From IMG/VR virus record IMGVR_UViG_2778261420_000023: 14,121 bases of DNA; one strand, 5' to 3'. Positions 6,642-12,553 of this stretch are shown one piece after another. The notes under the pieces were generated by a model. That model was not told the DNA's origin. It worked only from the letters and a program-made list of their open reading frames with translations, and ran no database searches. Each line of letters opens with the position of its first letter. Positions within the stretch are counted from its first letter, which is position 1. This stretch comes from a virus. Its lineage: Duplodnaviria; Heunggongvirae; Uroviricota; Caudoviricetes. The translations under genes and the position numbers were made by a program.

Positions 6642-6890
6642 TTATTGTTTCACTGGCTCCCGCATTCTGCGTCTTATTTTCCACAAATATTCGATCATCG
6701 CTTCCACCTGCTCACGGTTGGTTGCGAAAATTTCCCCGGTCAGTGAGCTACGCAGAAAATCATGATGATCCACAAAAAATAACGCATCGGAAGAAAGCAA
6801 CCGACGATATTTTTTTGCTGTCGTGGTTTCCAGATCATCAAAACCATGAAGCTTTTTATGTTGCTGAACTTCTTCAAATGTCACTGGCAT
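6642..6890 (-). CDS. Hypothetical protein
   Basis: 82-aa ORF; ATG at 6890 preceded by AAGGGGGA SD; overlaps the 3' end of the ProQ/FinO-like gene by 10 nt. Confidence 0.5.
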   Translation of the reverse strand: MPVTFEEVQQHKKLHGFDDLETTTAKKYRRLLSSDALFFVDHHDFLRSSLTGEIFATNREQVEAMIEYLWKIRRRMREPVKQ

Positions 6891-7423
6891 GTATCCCCCT
6901 TTGCTGCCCGGCGCTGGCGCTTGTGCTTCTCATTCAGCACCATCAGCCGTGTTTCTGCCTCCTGCTGTTCCTGTGGTGTCACTTCCCCACATGGCTGGCC
7001 TTTCAGGTCGTAACGTGCGCCACCAGCTATCAGGGCGCGGTAATAGCGCGGAGACTGCGCATAGGATGCCAGCGTCGCACGTAATACCCCCGACCCGAAT
7101 GCCAGCCCCCTGACGGCGATATCCTGCATCAGGTCGTCGAATATCCCCACCTTAAGCGGCTTCGGTGCTTTATGGCTGAATAAGTCAGGCCACATCTCAG
7201 TGAGGCGGTTAACGCGTCGGCGGTTTTTGCGCTGCCTTTTGGTCATATGCTGCCACGGTGTCGCCCCTGCGGTCTTCTGTTTGCGGCTCTGCTGTGCGTT
7301 CTGATTATCGGGTATCACTTTATGCGCCGATGTGGTTTTATCCTGCTCTTGCGCCGCCTGCGTCGTTTTCTGCGGCGTGCCGTAAATGCCTTTCGGCTTC
7401 CGGTTAATGGTCAGCGTTGTCAT
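6881..7423 (-). CDS. ProQ/FinO-domain RNA-binding protein (RNA chaperone-like)
   Basis: PKPLKVGIFDDLMQDIA...LRATLASYAQSPRYYRALIAGGARYDLKGQPCGEV aligns by eye with the E. coli ProQ N-terminal FinO domain (PLKIGIFQDL...LRSALRLYTSSWRYL...RVDLDGNPCGEL). Basic N- and C-terminal extensions. ATG at 7423 with GGGGGAAGG SD. Confidence 0.75.
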   Translation of the reverse strand: MTTLTINRKPKGIYGTPQKTTQAAQEQDKTTSAHKVIPDNQNAQQSRKQKTAGATPWQHMTKRQRKNRRRVNRLTEMWPDLFSHKAPKPLKVGIFDDLMQDIAVRGLAFGSGVLRATLASYAQSPRYYRALIAGGARYDLKGQPCGEVTPQEQQEAETRLMVLNEKHKRQRRAAKGDTCQ

Positions 7424-8095: not shown

Positions 8096-10219
8096 TTAAT
8101 CTTCTGCCTCAGGCTGGAACATCAGCACGTAAAAAACATGCTGCTTCCCCCCAATTTTGCTGAGCGCCTTTTTCTTGTAACGGCGGTCGTTCCCCTTTTC
8201 CAGCATCCCCGCCGCATCAAGCGCTCTTGCAAAATGCGACGGGTTAAATCCCTGTGCGATCTCACCTTCAAACACATGCGGGAACGTGTAAAAACGGAAC
8301 TCGTCATCTTCGTTTCTGATACTCCCCTTTCTGTATCCGGCAAGTTCTTTAATCGGTAAATCACGCTCGTCGGTGTTGGGCCACGGAAGGTATCTGCTGA
8401 ATCCGAACGACGCTAAAAAAGCCTCTGCCTGTTCAACCATCTGTTTAAATTCCCTGTTACCCGTGCCGAACTCCTTCACCCAGGCATTAAAATTATGCTG
8501 TATGGCATCGCGGCACGCCTGAACATCCCAGCCAGTAATATGACCGGACAACACTAACGCCGCCTCAAGCATGGCAAATCGCTCCCCCACACGGTGAACC
8601 TGTTCGCCGTAGCTCTCCGGTATCAGGTTGCGCCACCGTTCACGGCATGCCCTTACCGTGTCCTTTGCTTCCTGCTGGTGGTTTGCCAGCCATTTAACCC
8701 ACTCTCGACCCGCCGCCCCGTGATTTTCTGTCCAGGCATCCTTTAACGCGTCTGCGTGCGCCTTTCCGGTGCTGTATTCGTGAAACTGCGTGGCTTTTTC
8801 CATCGGCACGTTAAGCAGGCGGACAAGCTGCCCCGCCTTGACTTTTATCCCCTCCGTTTTGAGGAATGTTTCAACGTCCATTTCTCCGGTGCTGATTGCC
8901 ACCGTGCGCCAGTGTTTGATCTCCCTGTTGCCGCCGTCCTTCGCCCCCTGTAATTTCCCCGAACCGTTAAACAGCGTATAGGCTGACGTGGACACCTCCC
9001 GCGCGTTTCCGGCCTGACCTATTTCATCCAGGGGTAACAGCCCGTCATTATGCGCTTCGGCCTCGTTGGCGATACCTAACGCCGTGCCGTACCAGGTCAG
9101 CCGTTGTGCGTCCGGCTCTCCCCATAAACTGGATGCGATGTTCTGTGTGGTGGTTTTCCCTGCCGATGACTGTTCGAAAAGATGTACCCCGAAGCCGTCA
9201 GCCCCCACCAGCCCGATTAATGGTGCGGATAACGATACCGCCACACCCAGCATCATGGACGGATTACCACCAGCCAGCCGCGCCACGGTATCGCGCCAAC
9301 CCTCCGCCGTTCCTGCCACGGAATAGCCATTAACAGCAGCCGTTTTTCCGGTAAACAGGGCTGGCTTTTCGCAATCACCAATGACCGAACCGTCCGGCAT
9401 GATGTACGCGCCAAAATGCCAGCCCGTTGTTGTGCTTAACTGCCATTCCTCATGGCTTCCGCTTAACTGCATCCAGTCAGCCAGGATAGCCCTGTATTTG
9501 CCGTTAGTTGTTACGTTCAGTCCGTGGTCTTTCAGCAGCCGCCAGCCGTCACGGTCGCCAATGCCACCGCACGGAACCGCCATTGTGATGACTTCATGGT
9601 TTGCTAATTTTTTCCAGCGCATCACGCGGTAATGCTCTTTACCGATTGTTCCCGTTCCCAGTAGTTCAAGCGGGGAACATAACCACGTCTCAGGCCGGAT
9701 AATTTCGCCTGACTGCTTATCCACTTTTGGCGTTACCCAGAAAACACCATCGGCGCGACTTTCAACGCGGGGCTTTAATTCATCATCGCCCTGGCTTTCT
9801 GTAATTTTTTTCTTTAAAGGCAACACCAGACTTTCCCCGCGCTCGTATTCGTCTTTGAGGCGAGGCAACTGGTCGGATAAATCCGCCGGGCTGGTGTCAG
9901 TTATCCCCGCGTATTCGTATACGGTCTTCACGCCAGCCACAGCCAGCAACGTGACGATCTGTGTAAGGCTACGTTCAGTGATGTGCCCTGCGCGGTAAAT
10001 ACGCACACACTGACGGCTATCATCAATAATTTGATAACCGGTAATATCTTTCAGGTGTTCATCTGACAGAACGACAGGTGGCACATTGTCGGCGGCAATA
10101 TGCTTACCTGCCCATTCCTGCCACTCTTTCGCATGGCTCCACGCATCACTACCTGCAAAGATGATTACCTCCGTCATTTTGTCGGCTGGCTGGTGCTTTA
10201 AGTTTGGTGCGCGCTTCAT
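8096..10219 (-). CDS. Primase/helicase-like replication initiator with P-loop NTPase domain
   Basis: 707 aa; Walker A (EQSSAGKTTTQ) and Walker B-like (GLLPLDEIGQ) motifs; N-terminal region may be a toprim/primase-type domain (EVIIFAGSDAW, unverified). ATG at 10219 overlaps the upstream stop (ATGA). Confidence 0.75.
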   Translation of the reverse strand: MKRAPNLKHQPADKMTEVIIFAGSDAWSHAKEWQEWAGKHIAADNVPPVVLSDEHLKDITGYQIIDDSRQCVRIYRAGHITERSLTQIVTLLAVAGVKTVYEYAGITDTSPADLSDQLPRLKDEYERGESLVLPLKKKITESQGDDELKPRVESRADGVFWVTPKVDKQSGEIIRPETWLCSPLELLGTGTIGKEHYRVMRWKKLANHEVITMAVPCGGIGDRDGWRLLKDHGLNVTTNGKYRAILADWMQLSGSHEEWQLSTTTGWHFGAYIMPDGSVIGDCEKPALFTGKTAAVNGYSVAGTAEGWRDTVARLAGGNPSMMLGVAVSLSAPLIGLVGADGFGVHLFEQSSAGKTTTQNIASSLWGEPDAQRLTWYGTALGIANEAEAHNDGLLPLDEIGQAGNAREVSTSAYTLFNGSGKLQGAKDGGNREIKHWRTVAISTGEMDVETFLKTEGIKVKAGQLVRLLNVPMEKATQFHEYSTGKAHADALKDAWTENHGAAGREWVKWLANHQQEAKDTVRACRERWRNLIPESYGEQVHRVGERFAMLEAALVLSGHITGWDVQACRDAIQHNFNAWVKEFGTGNREFKQMVEQAEAFLASFGFSRYLPWPNTDERDLPIKELAGYRKGSIRNEDDEFRFYTFPHVFEGEIAQGFNPSHFARALDAAGMLEKGNDRRYKKKALSKIGGKQHVFYVLMFQPEAED

Positions 10220-10530
10220 TTTGCCTTTCCCCGTTCACGAATAATTTCACGTACTGCCTTAATGCGTTCCATTCCTGTAACGCGCATGATTCTGTCGATG
10301 TCGCTTAATTCTGCTGGTGGTGCTTTGCTTACCAGGGTGAACTCCCTTTCAAAGCGCATATGCGACGACACGCAGGGATGCGCATAACCTTCGCGGATAT
10401 AGGTCACGCGAAAATCATCGACGGTTTTAATCGTTATCGTGCTGCCGTATTTATCCCGGAAAATATCGCCGGGGCGGATTTCAGGCCGAGCGGGGCCGCT
10501 GGCAGTAAAGCCAGAATTTTTCTTTTTCAT
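10216..10530 (-). CDS. Hypothetical protein
   Basis: 104-aa ORF with ATG at 10530, translationally coupled to the primase gene; no motif recognised. Confidence 0.5.
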   Translation of the reverse strand: MKKKNSGFTASGPARPEIRPGDIFRDKYGSTITIKTVDDFRVTYIREGYAHPCVSSHMRFEREFTLVSKAPPAELSDIDRIMRVTGMERIKAVREIIRERGKAK

Positions 10531-10536
10531 ATTTTT

Positions 10537-10755
10537 TTACTCCAGAGGCAGCTTTTTAGCGGCGAGCTCAATATCAGATGTCAGAGAAACCTGTGTATTT
10601 GCCAGGTCTAACAGCAAAGAAATAAGAATTTCTTCTCTGCTATCGGATTTATCGGTGCTAAGGCTGTTCATCCACATATTGACGACTTCCCTGATTTTTT
10701 TCGCAGAGTGCAGGGCTTCAAATGCCAGGTCTTCAATATCATGTTTATTTCGCAT
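10537..10755 (-). CDS. Hypothetical small protein
   Basis: Start placed at ATG 10755 (MRNKHDIEDL...), preceded by GGCGGGGGCG; overlaps the upstream gene by 11 nt. Alternative starts at 10770 and 10785. Confidence 0.4.
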   Translation of the reverse strand: MRNKHDIEDLAFEALHSAKKIREVVNMWMNSLSTDKSDSREEILISLLLDLANTQVSLTSDIELAAKKLPLE

Positions 10756-10990
10756 AATCGCCCCCGCCATTTTCACAATCAGCAATCAGGATGGCTTTAG
10801 CCTCATTCAGCGCCATATCAGCGGTAAGCTGTGCGTAAGCCAGCGAATGCGGGATTATCGCCCCTGTATATTCCGGCTCTCTGGTAATGTGTTTTTCTGC
10901 GATTGCTACCGTGCATGAAATATCAATCAGCGCGTGCATCAGCGTTTTGATGGCTTCGGCGGCTGCGTCCGGACGGGTGTTATTGCACAT
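10745..10990 (-). CDS. Hypothetical small protein
   Basis: 81-aa ORF; ATG at 10990 preceded by AGGGGGTGA SD; 11-nt overlap with the upstream gene. Confidence 0.45.
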   Translation of the reverse strand: MCNNTRPDAAAEAIKTLMHALIDISCTVAIAEKHITREPEYTGAIIPHSLAYAQLTADMALNEAKAILIADCENGGGDYAK

Positions 10991-11192
10991 GTCTCACCCC
11001 CTGAATATTCGCGTTAATCATTCCGGCACGTTCTGCGAGTTCCTGTAATGATTCCCTTGTTGCGACAATGGCTTCATCTGGCAGGTGGTAATTACACACC
11101 ACGCGACCTTTATCCACATTGACCAGTAGCTGCCCGGTAAATTTCTCACGAAACTGAACGCGGTTAAGGTCGGTAAGTGACAGGTTAATCAT
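10980..11192 (-). CDS. Hypothetical small protein
   Basis: Start placed at ATG 11192 (MINLSLTDLN...), preceded by GGGGGAAG SD; 8-nt overlap (ATGATTAA) with the upstream ORF stop. Confidence 0.45.
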   Translation of the reverse strand: MINLSLTDLNRVQFREKFTGQLLVNVDKGRVVCNYHLPDEAIVATRESLQELAERAGMINANIQGVRHVQ

Positions 11193-11388
11193 GGTCTTCC
11201 CCCTGGCGAATACGGGCAGCAAATACCATCACGCAGCCATCAGGAGATTGCTGACGCGCTTCCTGTTCGCTGGTGGCCTCAATGGTAATCACGCGCGGTT
11301 GTGCCGTGCTCAGGGCGATAAAACGCCAGATGTATTTATTCAGGTTGTACGAGTCCCGCCCTTGCGGGTGTCTGGTATAATTTCTCAT
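11185..11388 (-). CDS. Hypothetical small protein, first gene of the leftward operon
   Basis: 67-aa C-terminal segment of the long track ORF, starting at ATG 11388 with GAGG SD 6-7 nt upstream; the rest of the 370-aa ORF is judged spurious. Confidence 0.35.
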   Translation of the reverse strand: MRNYTRHPQGRDSYNLNKYIWRFIALSTAQPRVITIEATSEQEARQQSPDGCVMVFAARIRQGEDHD

Positions 11389-11464
11389 AGCTGCCTCGAT
11401 ACGCTTTCTATCGTTGGTGGTTAGACGCCCTGCATGTGTGCCACCACTGCGGGGCGTTGTTGTT

Positions 11465-11514
11465 TGGTGCATTGCACCATTCGGTTTTAACCTATCAATA
11501 AGTGAATCGCACTT
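11465..11514. promoter_or_regulatory. Palindromic operator-like sites in the divergent control region
   Basis: TGGTGCA-T-TGCACCA (11465-11479) and AAGTG-AATCG-CACTT (11500-11514); the core TGAATCGCAC recurs at 11548-11557 overlapping a TATACT -10-like hexamer (11543-11548) upstream of the plus-strand RHH gene. Confidence 0.5.
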
Positions 11515-11578
11515 CAAGCCTTTCTCTGAAATTTTTTTTGTGTATACTGAATCGCACCAACTTAGAGAGGATTCAGTA

Positions 11579-11758
11579 ATGGCAACAGGTTCAACAAATA
11601 ATAAGTCGCAACAGTTAAATGCCAGATTCCCGCATGATGTTGTTGCAGACTTAGAAAAAAATTTAGATGAAGGTGAAAGCAAGGCGCAATTTATAGTTAC
11701 TGCCGTTAAAGGTGAGATCAAACGCCGCCAGCGCCGCAAGGCCAAAGAGCAGGAGTAA
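11579..11758 (+). CDS. Small ribbon-helix-helix-like DNA-binding protein (candidate repressor/switch protein)
   Basis: 59 aa (MATGSTNNKSQQLNARFPHDVVADLEKNLDEGESKAQFIVTAVKGEIKRRQRRKAKEQE): beta-strand-then-helices pattern typical of Arc/MetJ/CopG proteins, basic tail. ATG at 11579 with GAGAGG SD 8 nt upstream. One of only two plus-strand genes called. Confidence 0.5.
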   Translation: MATGSTNNKSQQLNARFPHDVVADLEKNLDEGESKAQFIVTAVKGEIKRRQRRKAKEQE

Positions 11759-11815
11759 CCATCACCAGCGCCGTGGTGTAAGGTATTACGGCGCATTGCT
11801 ATGCAGGACAACACA

Positions 11816-11989
11816 ATGACCGATAAAGAATTGACCAAAACATTATCACCGACACGGAAAAGACGGCGCAGAAAGATAGAGCATGAATCAGAAAGATTCG
11901 CGCCATGTGCTTTTGCCCTTGAGCAATTCCTTAAAGAGTACAGGGAAAAGCGCTCATTGCAGGTATGGCAACGAACTGAACCAGACTGA
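11816..11989 (+). CDS. Hypothetical small basic protein
   Basis: 57 aa from ATG 11816 (AGGA 8 nt upstream), downstream of the RHH gene and upstream of a plus-strand terminator; no motif recognised. Confidence 0.3.
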   Translation: MTDKELTKTLSPTRKRRRRKIEHESERFAPCAFALEQFLKEYREKRSLQVWQRTEPD

Positions 11990-12055
11990 TTGCATTGCCC
12001 ACCAGCCGCAAATGTGGCATTGTTGGTGATGCTTTTGTTTTCCCTTGTTCCCACT

Positions 12056-12085
12056 GGCGACCCTTTTGCGGTCGCCTTTGTTTTG
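12056..12085 (+). terminator. Rho-independent terminator of the short plus-strand unit
   Basis: GGCGACC-cttttgc-GGTCGCC stem-loop (12056-12076) followed by TTTGTTTTG. Confidence 0.55.
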
Positions 12086-12122
12086 CCTGTTATCCGGCAA
12101 TAGTGGCGCTTCACCACACGGT

Positions 12123-12208
12123 TGATATAATTCCCCTGCACTGATCCATTTTTTTCGCAGCAGGTTAATTGTTCAGAAAGGCGGTTCCTTATCGGGGCCG
12201 CTTTTTTT
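12123..12208 (+). ncRNA. Candidate small RNA unit: extended -10 promoter plus intrinsic terminator with no ORF between
   Basis: TGATATAAT at 12123-12131 matches extended -10 consensus TGnTATAAT; an 8-bp-stem hairpin (12181-12201, two G.U pairs) is followed by seven T (12202-12208). Predicted transcript about 70 nt, antisense to read-through from alpA. Confidence 0.3.
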
Positions 12209-12349
12209 ATGCCTGAAAATACCCGATAACATGGCTTTTTAGTTTCACCAGGACGAACGAAGCCCCGCCCCTGTTCGGGCGTATATCCAGTATTCATGGT
12301 TAGATCTCTGTGTTAGTGGATGGGTGGCGGCGGTGCGCCGCCAGCCTGA

Positions 12350-12553
12350 TTAGTGAACTGCCTCGCGGCTGTCCTTCCATGCCAGAACTTCGGATAAAGA
12401 CCAGCCAACGGAACGACCGCCGAGTTTACGCCGTGATGGGAATTGTCCAGTCTTCTCCAGGCGATACCGACATGAGCGGCTCAGGCCTGTAAGTTGCTGA
12501 CATTCTTTTTCACGTATAAAGCGATCAGCGCTTAACACTATTGCCTCCGTCAT
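12350..12553 (-). CDS. alpA: AlpA-family transcriptional regulator / excisionase-like protein
   Basis: 67 aa; LTGLSRSCRYRLEKTGQFPSRRKLGGRSVGWSLSEVLAWK matches the AlpA helix-turn-helix signature (TGLSRSTIYRL..G.FP....LG.R.VGW...E...W). Confidence 0.85.
   Translation of the reverse strand: MTEAIVLSADRFIREKECQQLTGLSRSCRYRLEKTGQFPSRRKLGGRSVGWSLSEVLAWKDSREAVH

Follow-up and report, generated by a model that had tools for sequence, protein, structure and literature searches.

What do five small, closely packed open reading frames (ORFs) contribute when they stand directly upstream of a satellite's primase gene? The question is raised by positions 10216-11388 of a 14,121-nucleotide (nt) stretch of viral DNA (IMG/VR record IMGVR_UViG_2778261420_000023, Caudoviricetes; hereafter the window). 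A preliminary description had reported five ORFs of 67-104 amino acids (aa) here, between a control region and the primase gene and in a satellite context. We find all five at these positions, on the minus strand, and number them ORF1 to ORF5 from 5' to 3' on that strand. Our analysis suggests that they probably make up the half nearest the promoter of an early/replication operon, carried by a capsid-forming phage-inducible chromosomal island (cf-PICI) of Escherichia coli and organised like the left operon of phage P4.

Each of the five ORFs opens with ATG behind a purine- or G-rich Shine-Dalgarno (SD) site at a distance of 5-9 nt: GAGG for ORF1, then GGGGGAAG, GGGGGTGAG and GGCGGGGGCG, and finally GGAG, 9 nt upstream of ORF5. 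This agrees with the preliminary description, whose further claim, that every ORF overlaps its neighbour by 4-11 nt, stands for four junctions and fails for one. ORF1 and ORF2 share 8 nt (ATGATTAA), ORF2 and ORF3 share 11 nt, ORF3 and ORF4 likewise share 11 nt, and ORF5 overlaps the primase gene by 4 nt (ATGA); between ORF4 and ORF5 there is instead a gap of 6 nt. Such junctions recur in eight diverged loci, where GGAGG or GGGGG lies 5-8 nt ahead of the ATG (in stereotyped form CAGG(A/G)GG and then 5-6 nt), where this ATG overlaps the preceding stop by 8 or 11 nt, and where the gap before the last small gene is 5-6 nt. Stop/start overlaps conserved across loci support the co-translation that had been thought likely.

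The ORFs are short, three have no curated family and the family of ORF4 is tiny, features that would suit chance open frames in a non-coding leader. We give that explanation almost no credence for any of the five. Their SD sites are strong, starts and stops are conserved, and homologues occur in several genera. The identical set of five coding sequences is annotated in RefSeq by the Prokaryotic Genome Annotation Pipeline in an island 99% identical over the region. When each ORF is compared with homologues from other islands, the proportion of nonsynonymous differences (pN) falls below that of synonymous differences (pS), with dN/dS (the corresponding rate ratio) of about 0.15-0.7. Because pN is below pS against homologues, RefSeq annotates the set and the junctions recur, the coding evidence identifies the five ORFs as genes.

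The arrangement is shared well beyond the window. We compared ten loci, nine E. coli islands and one Klebsiella element (L005), with small proteins grouped by BLASTP into families F1 to F9. F1, the Icd-like family of ORF1, comes first in all ten. F3, the DUF4222 family of ORF5, is last in the nine E. coli loci and absent from the Klebsiella element. The slot between them holds one to four genes that vary in number, order and copy number; F2 and F5, the families of ORF3 and ORF2, are found in either order and can be duplicated. F3 directly precedes four kinds of replicase (DUF927, RepA-type helicase, 'DNA primase family' and primase-like DNA-binding). When one genome per species was scanned, DUF4222 genes stood upstream of the replicase in eight loci of six other genera: directly so in seven loci (Pseudocitrobacter, Mangrovibacter, Serratia, Pantoea and Rouxiella), and at a distance of ~220 nt in Erwinia. 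Icd-like, F5-like or F4-like genes lay upstream of DUF4222. Parts of the region are carried by about 1500-1900 of 5426 complete E. coli genomes, the Icd-like gene being the most widely shared piece.

The preliminary description had seen no motif in any of the ORFs, which proves wrong at both ends of the array. ORF1 matches the Icd-like family NF033153 over residues 19-62 (E 9.7e-20; 70.4 bits against a cut-off of 25), and the P4 eta/kil ORF matches the same profile with its C-terminal domain (E 7.8e-21; 73.9 bits). ORF1 shows dN/dS of 0.22-0.53 and pN/pS of 0.24-0.58, and its internal Met and GAGG SD site are conserved among loci. We assign ORF1, on this profile evidence, to the Kil/Icd-like proteins and regard it, by homology, as a predicted inhibitor of host cell division. 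In the P4 record, the ORF carrying NF033153 bears the name 'cI gene product, transcriptional repressor'. From this obsolete entry ('cI gene product (AA 1-137)', NC_001609 8168-8584) the PHROG families of ORF1 (phrog_6196 and phrog_1743) appear to have inherited their label 'transcriptional repressor'; the ORF is actually eta/kil, and cI is now known to be an RNA.

The resemblance to P4 extends upstream of ORF1. In P4, according to PMC10111431 (section 20), the 65-aa kil is the terminal part of a ~198-codon frame, eta. The start of eta lies before the constitutive promoter PLE, and eta is coupled to vis, the P4 homologue of alpA. When eta (from the upstream promoter) or kil is translated, Rho-dependent termination is prevented and transcription extends into the genes beyond (Forti et al. 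1999, as summarised there). ORF1 is likewise not a free-standing small ORF, because its frame continues open for ~370 codons upstream. This eta-like frame begins just after the alpA stop and runs through ORF1, antisense to a ylcI/ynfO gene and a 62-aa ORF, with coinciding wobble positions. The control region of the preliminary description lies itself inside a long, translated-looking frame that holds ORF1; the placement of the five ORFs between it and the primase is correct.

Several observations indicate that this openness is maintained. Of 11 loci, 9 keep the frame open over 319-396 codons, and the other two same-strand frames there hold 15-26 stops. The probability of zero stops is 1e-6 to 1e-8 per locus, and none of 1000 shuffles was stop-free. 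Phase is kept across insertions and deletions, one of them an insertion of 42 codons facing a longer ylcI allele, and the frame is also open in Serratia and Rouxiella loci with an antisense ylcI. In the parts free of plus-strand genes (12312-11990 and 11578-11389), pN/pS is about 0.6-1.5, mostly near 1, and substitutions are evenly distributed over codon positions. A stop-free frame with pN/pS near 1 argues that selection preserves the openness and not the encoded sequence; the eta-like frame is thus evidently kept free of stops while its amino-acid sequence is unconstrained. Between the alpA stop, which it directly follows, and the frame's first ATG lies a GC-rich inverted repeat without a T-run (GGGTGGCGGCG / CGCCGCCAGCC, 12322-12346).

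Gene order completes the parallel. The P4 record reads vis, eta/kil, epsilon, orf151, orf106, alpha, and kil and epsilon overlap by 8 nt. Because the order, the nested eta/kil-type frame and the 8-nt overlap all match, the window has the P4 left-operon architecture, and the operon is predicted to work like its P4 counterpart; the window itself is, by its genes, no member of the P4 family. ORF2 occupies the exact position of epsilon, after a kil-type gene with an 8-nt overlap, and variation of the cassettes between islands fits helper-specific factors. One of ORF2-4 could on these grounds be a functional analogue of epsilon, an anti-repressor that derepresses or manipulates a helper prophage. 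This is improbable: BLASTP finds no cassette resembling P4 epsilon, orf151 or orf106, structure and PDB searches with ORF2-4 gave no clues, and E. coli PICIs are reported to be induced by their helper via alpA without blocking helper reproduction (10.1101/2022.09.08.507074).

The middle genes themselves belong to narrow families. ORF2 matches phrog_340 (E 6e-23), whose 34 protein clusters are all Escherichia and all 'hypothetical'; distant copies stand directly before DUF4222 in Serratia and Rouxiella. Its AlphaFold 2 (AF2) model, built with 18 homologues, was left out of the fold search because its mean predicted local distance difference test score (pLDDT) was 54.6. ORF3 matches phrog_5146 (E 4e-26; 177 clusters in E. 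coli, Salmonella and Citrobacter, all hypothetical and Pfam-less). Its family F2 is the commonest cassette, with nine copies in seven of the ten loci, sometimes duplicated and in either order relative to F5 (dN/dS about 0.4). ORF4 has weak PHROG matches only and nine representatives in 1.84 billion proteins. Its family F4 occurs in seven of the ten loci, including Klebsiella L005, and also in Pantoea; where present it always stands right before DUF4222.

Searches outside these islands returned little. PDB sequence and profile searches of ORF1 to ORF5 gave noise only (E>0.3), tblastn of ORF1, ORF2 and ORF5 against 50,697 phage records had the Klebsiella cf-PICI L005 as its sole match, and blastn of the region against phages had no matches. 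ORF2-4 are best described, from their distribution, as cassettes from a small pool of enterobacterial satellite-only families. The homology and structure searches place two of the five ORFs in known families and give a modelled fold for ORF5; ORF2-4 fall into narrow enterobacterial families of hypothetical proteins. ORF1 and ORF5 are accordingly not novel, and for ORF2-4 the searches speak neither for nor against the derepression or interference functions anticipated in the preliminary description.

ORF5 matches Pfam PF13973 (DUF4222) over residues 16-67 (E 3.4e-19; 68.6 bits against a gathering threshold of 27). Over a 71-aa core it is 53% identical to the DUF4222 protein of O157 O-island 51 (OI-51), RgdR, which has RGD at residues 20-22. 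The O157 locus in our comparison (L002) lies between phoQ and roxA, as does OI-51. RgdR (ECs1581, 99 aa) is an activator of LEE1 and type III secretion and a repressor of motility, and its binding to DNA is weak and non-specific; its RGD tripeptide is important for activating type III secretion (PMC3378721), and the homologue C1493 from the CFT073 PICI is likewise active (PMC3378721; PMC10877973). The AF2 model of ORF5 (pLDDT 77) shows a five-stranded SH3/Tudor/KOW-like barrel followed by basic C-terminal helices. As a basic protein of ~100 aa encoded on a P4/PICI-like island directly upstream of the replicase gene, ORF5 can be classed, by profile and position, as a DUF4222/RgdR-family protein.

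The invariant position of this gene and its ATGA coupling to whichever replicase follows suggest that its role may be tied to replication or to replicase expression. We rejected the idea that the two C-terminal variants of DUF4222 co-vary with replicase type, as the 104-aa type is found beside DUF927 as well as RepA, and the 99-aa type beside RepA, primase and DUF927 alike. A relation between DUF4222 and P4 ORF106 (DUF5375) was also discarded, hhalign showing none. As a separate observation, residues 1-103 of the DUF927 primase (9911-10219) are 59% identical to the N-terminus of the RepA-family helicase in O157 OI-51 (L002 2932-3237), and similar N-terminal domains head other replicase types (phrog_2850); the shared module adjoins DUF4222 in all of them.

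A published phenotype offers another view of such arrays. In ECOR61, transposon insertions in an Icd-like gene and the two following small ORFs (8-nt overlap) suppress the growth arrest triggered by phage orf24, and reconstituting the effect required six linked genes including a primase (Silas et al., 10.1101/2023.04.06.535777). The architecture is the same, and PICIs are known to carry defence genes. An Icd-like gene, small ORFs and primase could thus make up a phage-sensing abortive-infection (programmed cell death) module that serves superinfection exclusion and not satellite replication. An accessory protein of the phage would set off the cluster, and the cell would be killed or arrested by the Icd-like protein. 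We consider this rather unlikely. No PADLOC model matches any of the eight proteins searched, and the ECOR61 parallel is so far one of architecture. Moreover, the phenotype can equally be read as a phage protein inducing a satellite early operon. The defence explanation is compatible with ours. By the same architectural likeness, the ECOR61 cluster may be a satellite early operon of the window's kind.

The ECOR61 insertions bear on a further possibility, that ORF1 and a neighbouring small ORF act as toxin and antidote, so stabilising the island or keeping Kil toxicity in check while it is induced. Overexpression of P4 Kil kills cells, according to PMC10111431, the gene adjoining ORF1 is tightly co-translated with it, and insertions in the downstream ORFs of ECOR61 also suppressed death. 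We nevertheless regard a toxin-antidote pair as highly improbable: the gene after the Icd-like one differs by locus (F5, F2, F6, F7, F8 or F9), unlike a cognate antitoxin, and family and PADLOC searches matched no toxin-antitoxin family.

How would a P4-like operon be controlled in this island? We reject the CI-RNA mechanism of P4 for this island. Rfam gave no match in the window at E<=1, nor in 11150-12420 at E<=10 with lax filters, and thus neither C4 nor isrK nor any other credible RNA. The same conditions do detect C4/isrK in P4 and in L010, an E. coli locus without ylcI that carries C4 (CI) and isrK (seqA) RNAs inside eta; the other ylcI-bearing loci have neither RNA. In the window, ylcI sits where P4 and L010 have C4 and isrK. 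We also rejected a second copy of a leader motif as an analogue of P4 seqA/seqC (ATTGTTGGTG at 12019-12028 versus ATCGTTGGTG at 11410-11419), which is found in only four of nine E. coli loci. The 10-nt repeat ATTGTTGGTG, just downstream of the plus-strand 62-aa ORF, is probably due to chance.

The region between ylcI and ORF1 contains a putative internal PLE-like promoter flanked by two GTGCGATTCA direct repeats (11512-11503 and 11557-11548). Its TTGACA/TTGAAG box is conserved in an eight-locus alignment, and the flanking repeat sequence varies with the ylcI allele. Near the divergent ylcI/ORF1 promoters, the island-specific repeats are GTGCGATTCA in the window, GTGCGCACA in L001 and L009, and GTGTAAGAC in L003, L004 and L008. 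A different ylcI allele comes with a different repeat, the behaviour expected of operators for a cognate repressor. We infer an internal PLE-like promoter with island-specific operators, plausibly for a YlcI-family protein. The 99% identity with the nearest E. coli islands stops at 11459/11460, about 70 nt upstream of ORF1; upstream of ~11460 the ylcI and operator segment is a different allele, and alpA is again 97% identical (protein). The break thereby marks an apparent mosaic exchange of an immunity cassette.

Downstream of the promoter, the ORF1 leader is structured. A hairpin at 11456-11426 has two compensatory pairs (RNAalifold, seven loci), and an invariant C-rich 18-mer at 11425-11408 is a possible Rho utilisation (rut) or standby site. 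The stem at 11414-11398, invariant with a variable loop, pairs into the ORF1 SD site (GAGG, 11397-11394). A leader folded in this manner would be expected to restrict ORF1 translation.

The genes around the operon support the satellite context of the preliminary description. Apart from the two plus-strand genes opposite the eta-like frame, all genes of the window are on the minus strand (Table 1). Pfam matches comprise integrase, AlpA, the DUF927 primase/helicase, single-stranded DNA-binding protein (SSB) and ProQ/FinO, together with the late genes for HK97-type capsid, prohead protease, portal, head-tail connector, HNH, and the small and large terminase subunits (TerS and TerL). No tail genes are found among the window's Pfam matches, nor in a near-identical island of ~14.6 kb, which is 98-99% identical to the window and, in nine E. 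coli genomes, interrupts yifB beside ilv. Capsid-forming PICIs are defined by such gene content, and alpA is the PICI master activator (10.1101/2022.09.08.507074). With int, alpA and replicase in PICI order, its own capsid and packaging genes and a size of ~15 kb, the window is, judged from its genes, an E. coli cf-PICI satellite. A cf-PICI would be expected to respond to a helper phage through alpA and to travel in small capsids of its own fitted with tails from the helper. PMC10111431 outlines a four-zone model for such islands (Integration-Bro-Replication-Late).

Table 1 Features of the operon and its upstream region in the window.
Feature	Position	Strand	Assignment or evidence
Replicase: DUF927 primase/helicase, 707 aa	8096..10219	-	PF06048, E 1e-45; phrog_1139, E 3e-174
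ORF5, 104 aa	10216..10530	-	DUF4222/RgdR family
ORF4, 72 aa	10537..10755	-	family F4
ORF3, 81 aa	10745..10990	-	family F2 (phrog_5146/2512)
ORF2, 70 aa	10980..11192	-	family F5 (phrog_340)
ORF1, 67 aa	11185..11388	-	Icd-like/P4 Kil-like small protein; first gene of the predicted early operon
Eta-like long open frame, first ATG 12297, 370 codons, 3' end = ORF1	11185..12312	-	stop-free in 9 of 11 loci
Conserved ORF1 leader	11394..11456	-	RNAalifold on 7 loci; 8-locus alignment
Putative internal PLE-like promoter, TTGAAG (11517-11512)-17 nt-TAGGTT (11494-11489)	11489..11557	-	box conserved in 8-locus alignment
ylcI/ynfO-family gene, 59 aa, candidate repressor	11579..11758	+	NF041551, E 1.5e-17; RefSeq-annotated in related loci
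62-aa ORF (phrog_21027) downstream of ylcI	11801..11989	+	phrog_21027, E 1.5e-15; terminator-like hairpins follow
Terminator-like site	12056-12076	+	after the 62-aa ORF
alpA (P4 vis homologue)	12350..12553	-	PF05930, E 3e-18

Three observations concern the window's neighbours and relatives. A gene for a ProQ/FinO-family RNA chaperone lies at 6881-7423, between SSB and the capsid module, where related islands have a PerC-family regulator. We do not equate O157 OI-51 with the cf-PICI prototype EcCIEDL933, as portal and TerL genes are missing from OI-51 of strain F6667, which does carry genes for capsid, decoration protein and TerS. L005 is LR881103.1, 'Escherichia phage vB_KppS-Ant', a 16.5-kb entry from the phage collection and a Klebsiella element with cf-PICI gene content (int, regulator, a 324-aa Icd-like ORF, small ORFs, primase, capsid, portal and TerS/TerL). 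One of its genes is labelled, oddly, 'tail length tape measure protein'; by its gene content L005 is probably a satellite rather than a phage.

Some points weigh against a P4-like early operon. Island and operon are known here from sequence alone. By BLASTP, ORF1 meets P4 Kil only at E 6.5, their kinship resting on the NCBIfam profile, and tblastn of ORF1 gave no P1 match in a phage collection that should include P1. ORF2-4 match nothing in PADLOC, Pfam, NCBIfam or PDB. The RGD motif of RgdR is absent from ORF5 because residue 20 is P: ORF5 reads I18-R19-P20-G21-D22, the O157 protein (L002) T19-R20-G21-D22, and the tripeptide occurs in none of 120 close ORF5 homologues. The regulatory logic of P4 cannot simply be transferred, because the window has no CI/C4 or isrK RNA. 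The first ATG of the eta-like frame lacks a good SD site and lies 53 nt past the alpA stop, behind the GC-rich hairpin, so that coupling to alpA is not evident in the window. Finally, the frame is interrupted in two related loci (L006 and L010).

With these points taken into account, we still favour the P4-like early operon of a cf-PICI and propose the following course of events. In the integrated state, the internal promoter with its allele-specific repeats would be kept off, probably by the YlcI-family protein, and the ORF1 SD site would be partly buried in the conserved leader stem. A helper phage would activate alpA, ribosomes would then translate the eta-like frame, and the transcript would be shielded from Rho, as for P4 eta. 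Stop/start coupling would pass translation from ORF1 through ORF2 and ORF3 to ORF4, with re-initiation after the 6-nt gap at ORF5 and then the primase. ORF1 would arrest host cell division, like P1 Icd and P4 Kil. As a presumed DNA-binding protein, basic and SH3-like, ORF5 would work alongside the replicase or influence host transcription, and ORF2-4 would supply island-specific interactions with host or helper.

A broader idea can be offered only tentatively, with more doubt than confidence. A protein switch, the antisense YlcI/YnfO repressor, may have replaced P4-type RNA immunity in this large class of enterobacterial PICIs. The eta-like frame would then be purely a translated spacer that carries ribosomes from alpA to kil and defeats Rho, and the allele-specific operator repeats would set island-specific immunity. 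ORF2-4 would be 'translational-coupling cassettes', exchanged by recombination at their conserved SD-ATG-stop junctions, and one or more of these cassettes would sense phage proteins together with the Kil-like protein, as in the ECOR61 cluster.

Taken together, this is a widespread, RefSeq-annotated and largely uncharacterised early operon of Gram-negative PICIs, of an already-known kind with P4-like logic. Parts of it are found in over one in four complete E. coli genomes, though three of the five small proteins lack an assigned function, and one RgdR/DUF4222 member modulates virulence genes of enterohaemorrhagic E. coli. The P4-like frame of reference gives testable roles: Kil-type division arrest, translation-dependent antitermination and a replicase-coupled SH3-like DNA-binding protein. 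On this view, the 'Icd-like cell-death system' described for ECOR61 may be the early operon of a satellite. As for new activities aimed at host or helper, the cassettes make good candidates. Two features of the locus stand out: a stop-free but sequence-free eta-like frame antisense to ylcI in place of the P4 CI RNA, and the cassette shuffling of ORF2-4.

Among known systems, the left operon of P4 is the closest model in organisation. Both combine an AlpA/Vis homologue with a long frame whose end is a nested Kil/Icd-like gene of ~65 aa, followed by small overlapping ORFs and a primase, and in both an 8-nt overlap follows the kil-type gene. P4 has its helper-derepression gene, epsilon, where the window has ORF2. 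In the window, however, ylcI/ynfO lies antisense in the long frame instead of the C4/CI and isrK/seqA RNAs, the replicase is of the DUF927 type, and the island carries its own capsid and packaging genes and no sid, delta or psu. The immI region of phage P1 (c4 RNA, icd, ant) supplies, in its Icd, the founding name of ORF1's family; the window differs in having neither a C4 RNA nor an ant homologue. P1 couples the translation of icd to the gene that follows it.

ORF5 resembles RgdR of O157:H7 O-island 51 (Flockhart et al. 2012, PMC3378721) in Pfam family, approximate size, basic C-terminus and position before the replicase, and differs from it in lacking the RGD and in having another variant of the C-terminal helix. 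As a whole, the element is most like the Gram-negative PICIs and cf-PICIs (EcCICFT073 and EcCIEDL933; Fillol-Salom 2018, Alqurainy 2023), with int, alpA, replicase and SSB followed by the genes from capsid to TerS/TerL, tail-less. Its regulatory cassette departs from that of its nearest relatives upstream of about 11460, and the array from Icd-like gene to DUF4222 and replicase is the same in other E. coli PICIs, O157 OI-51 included.

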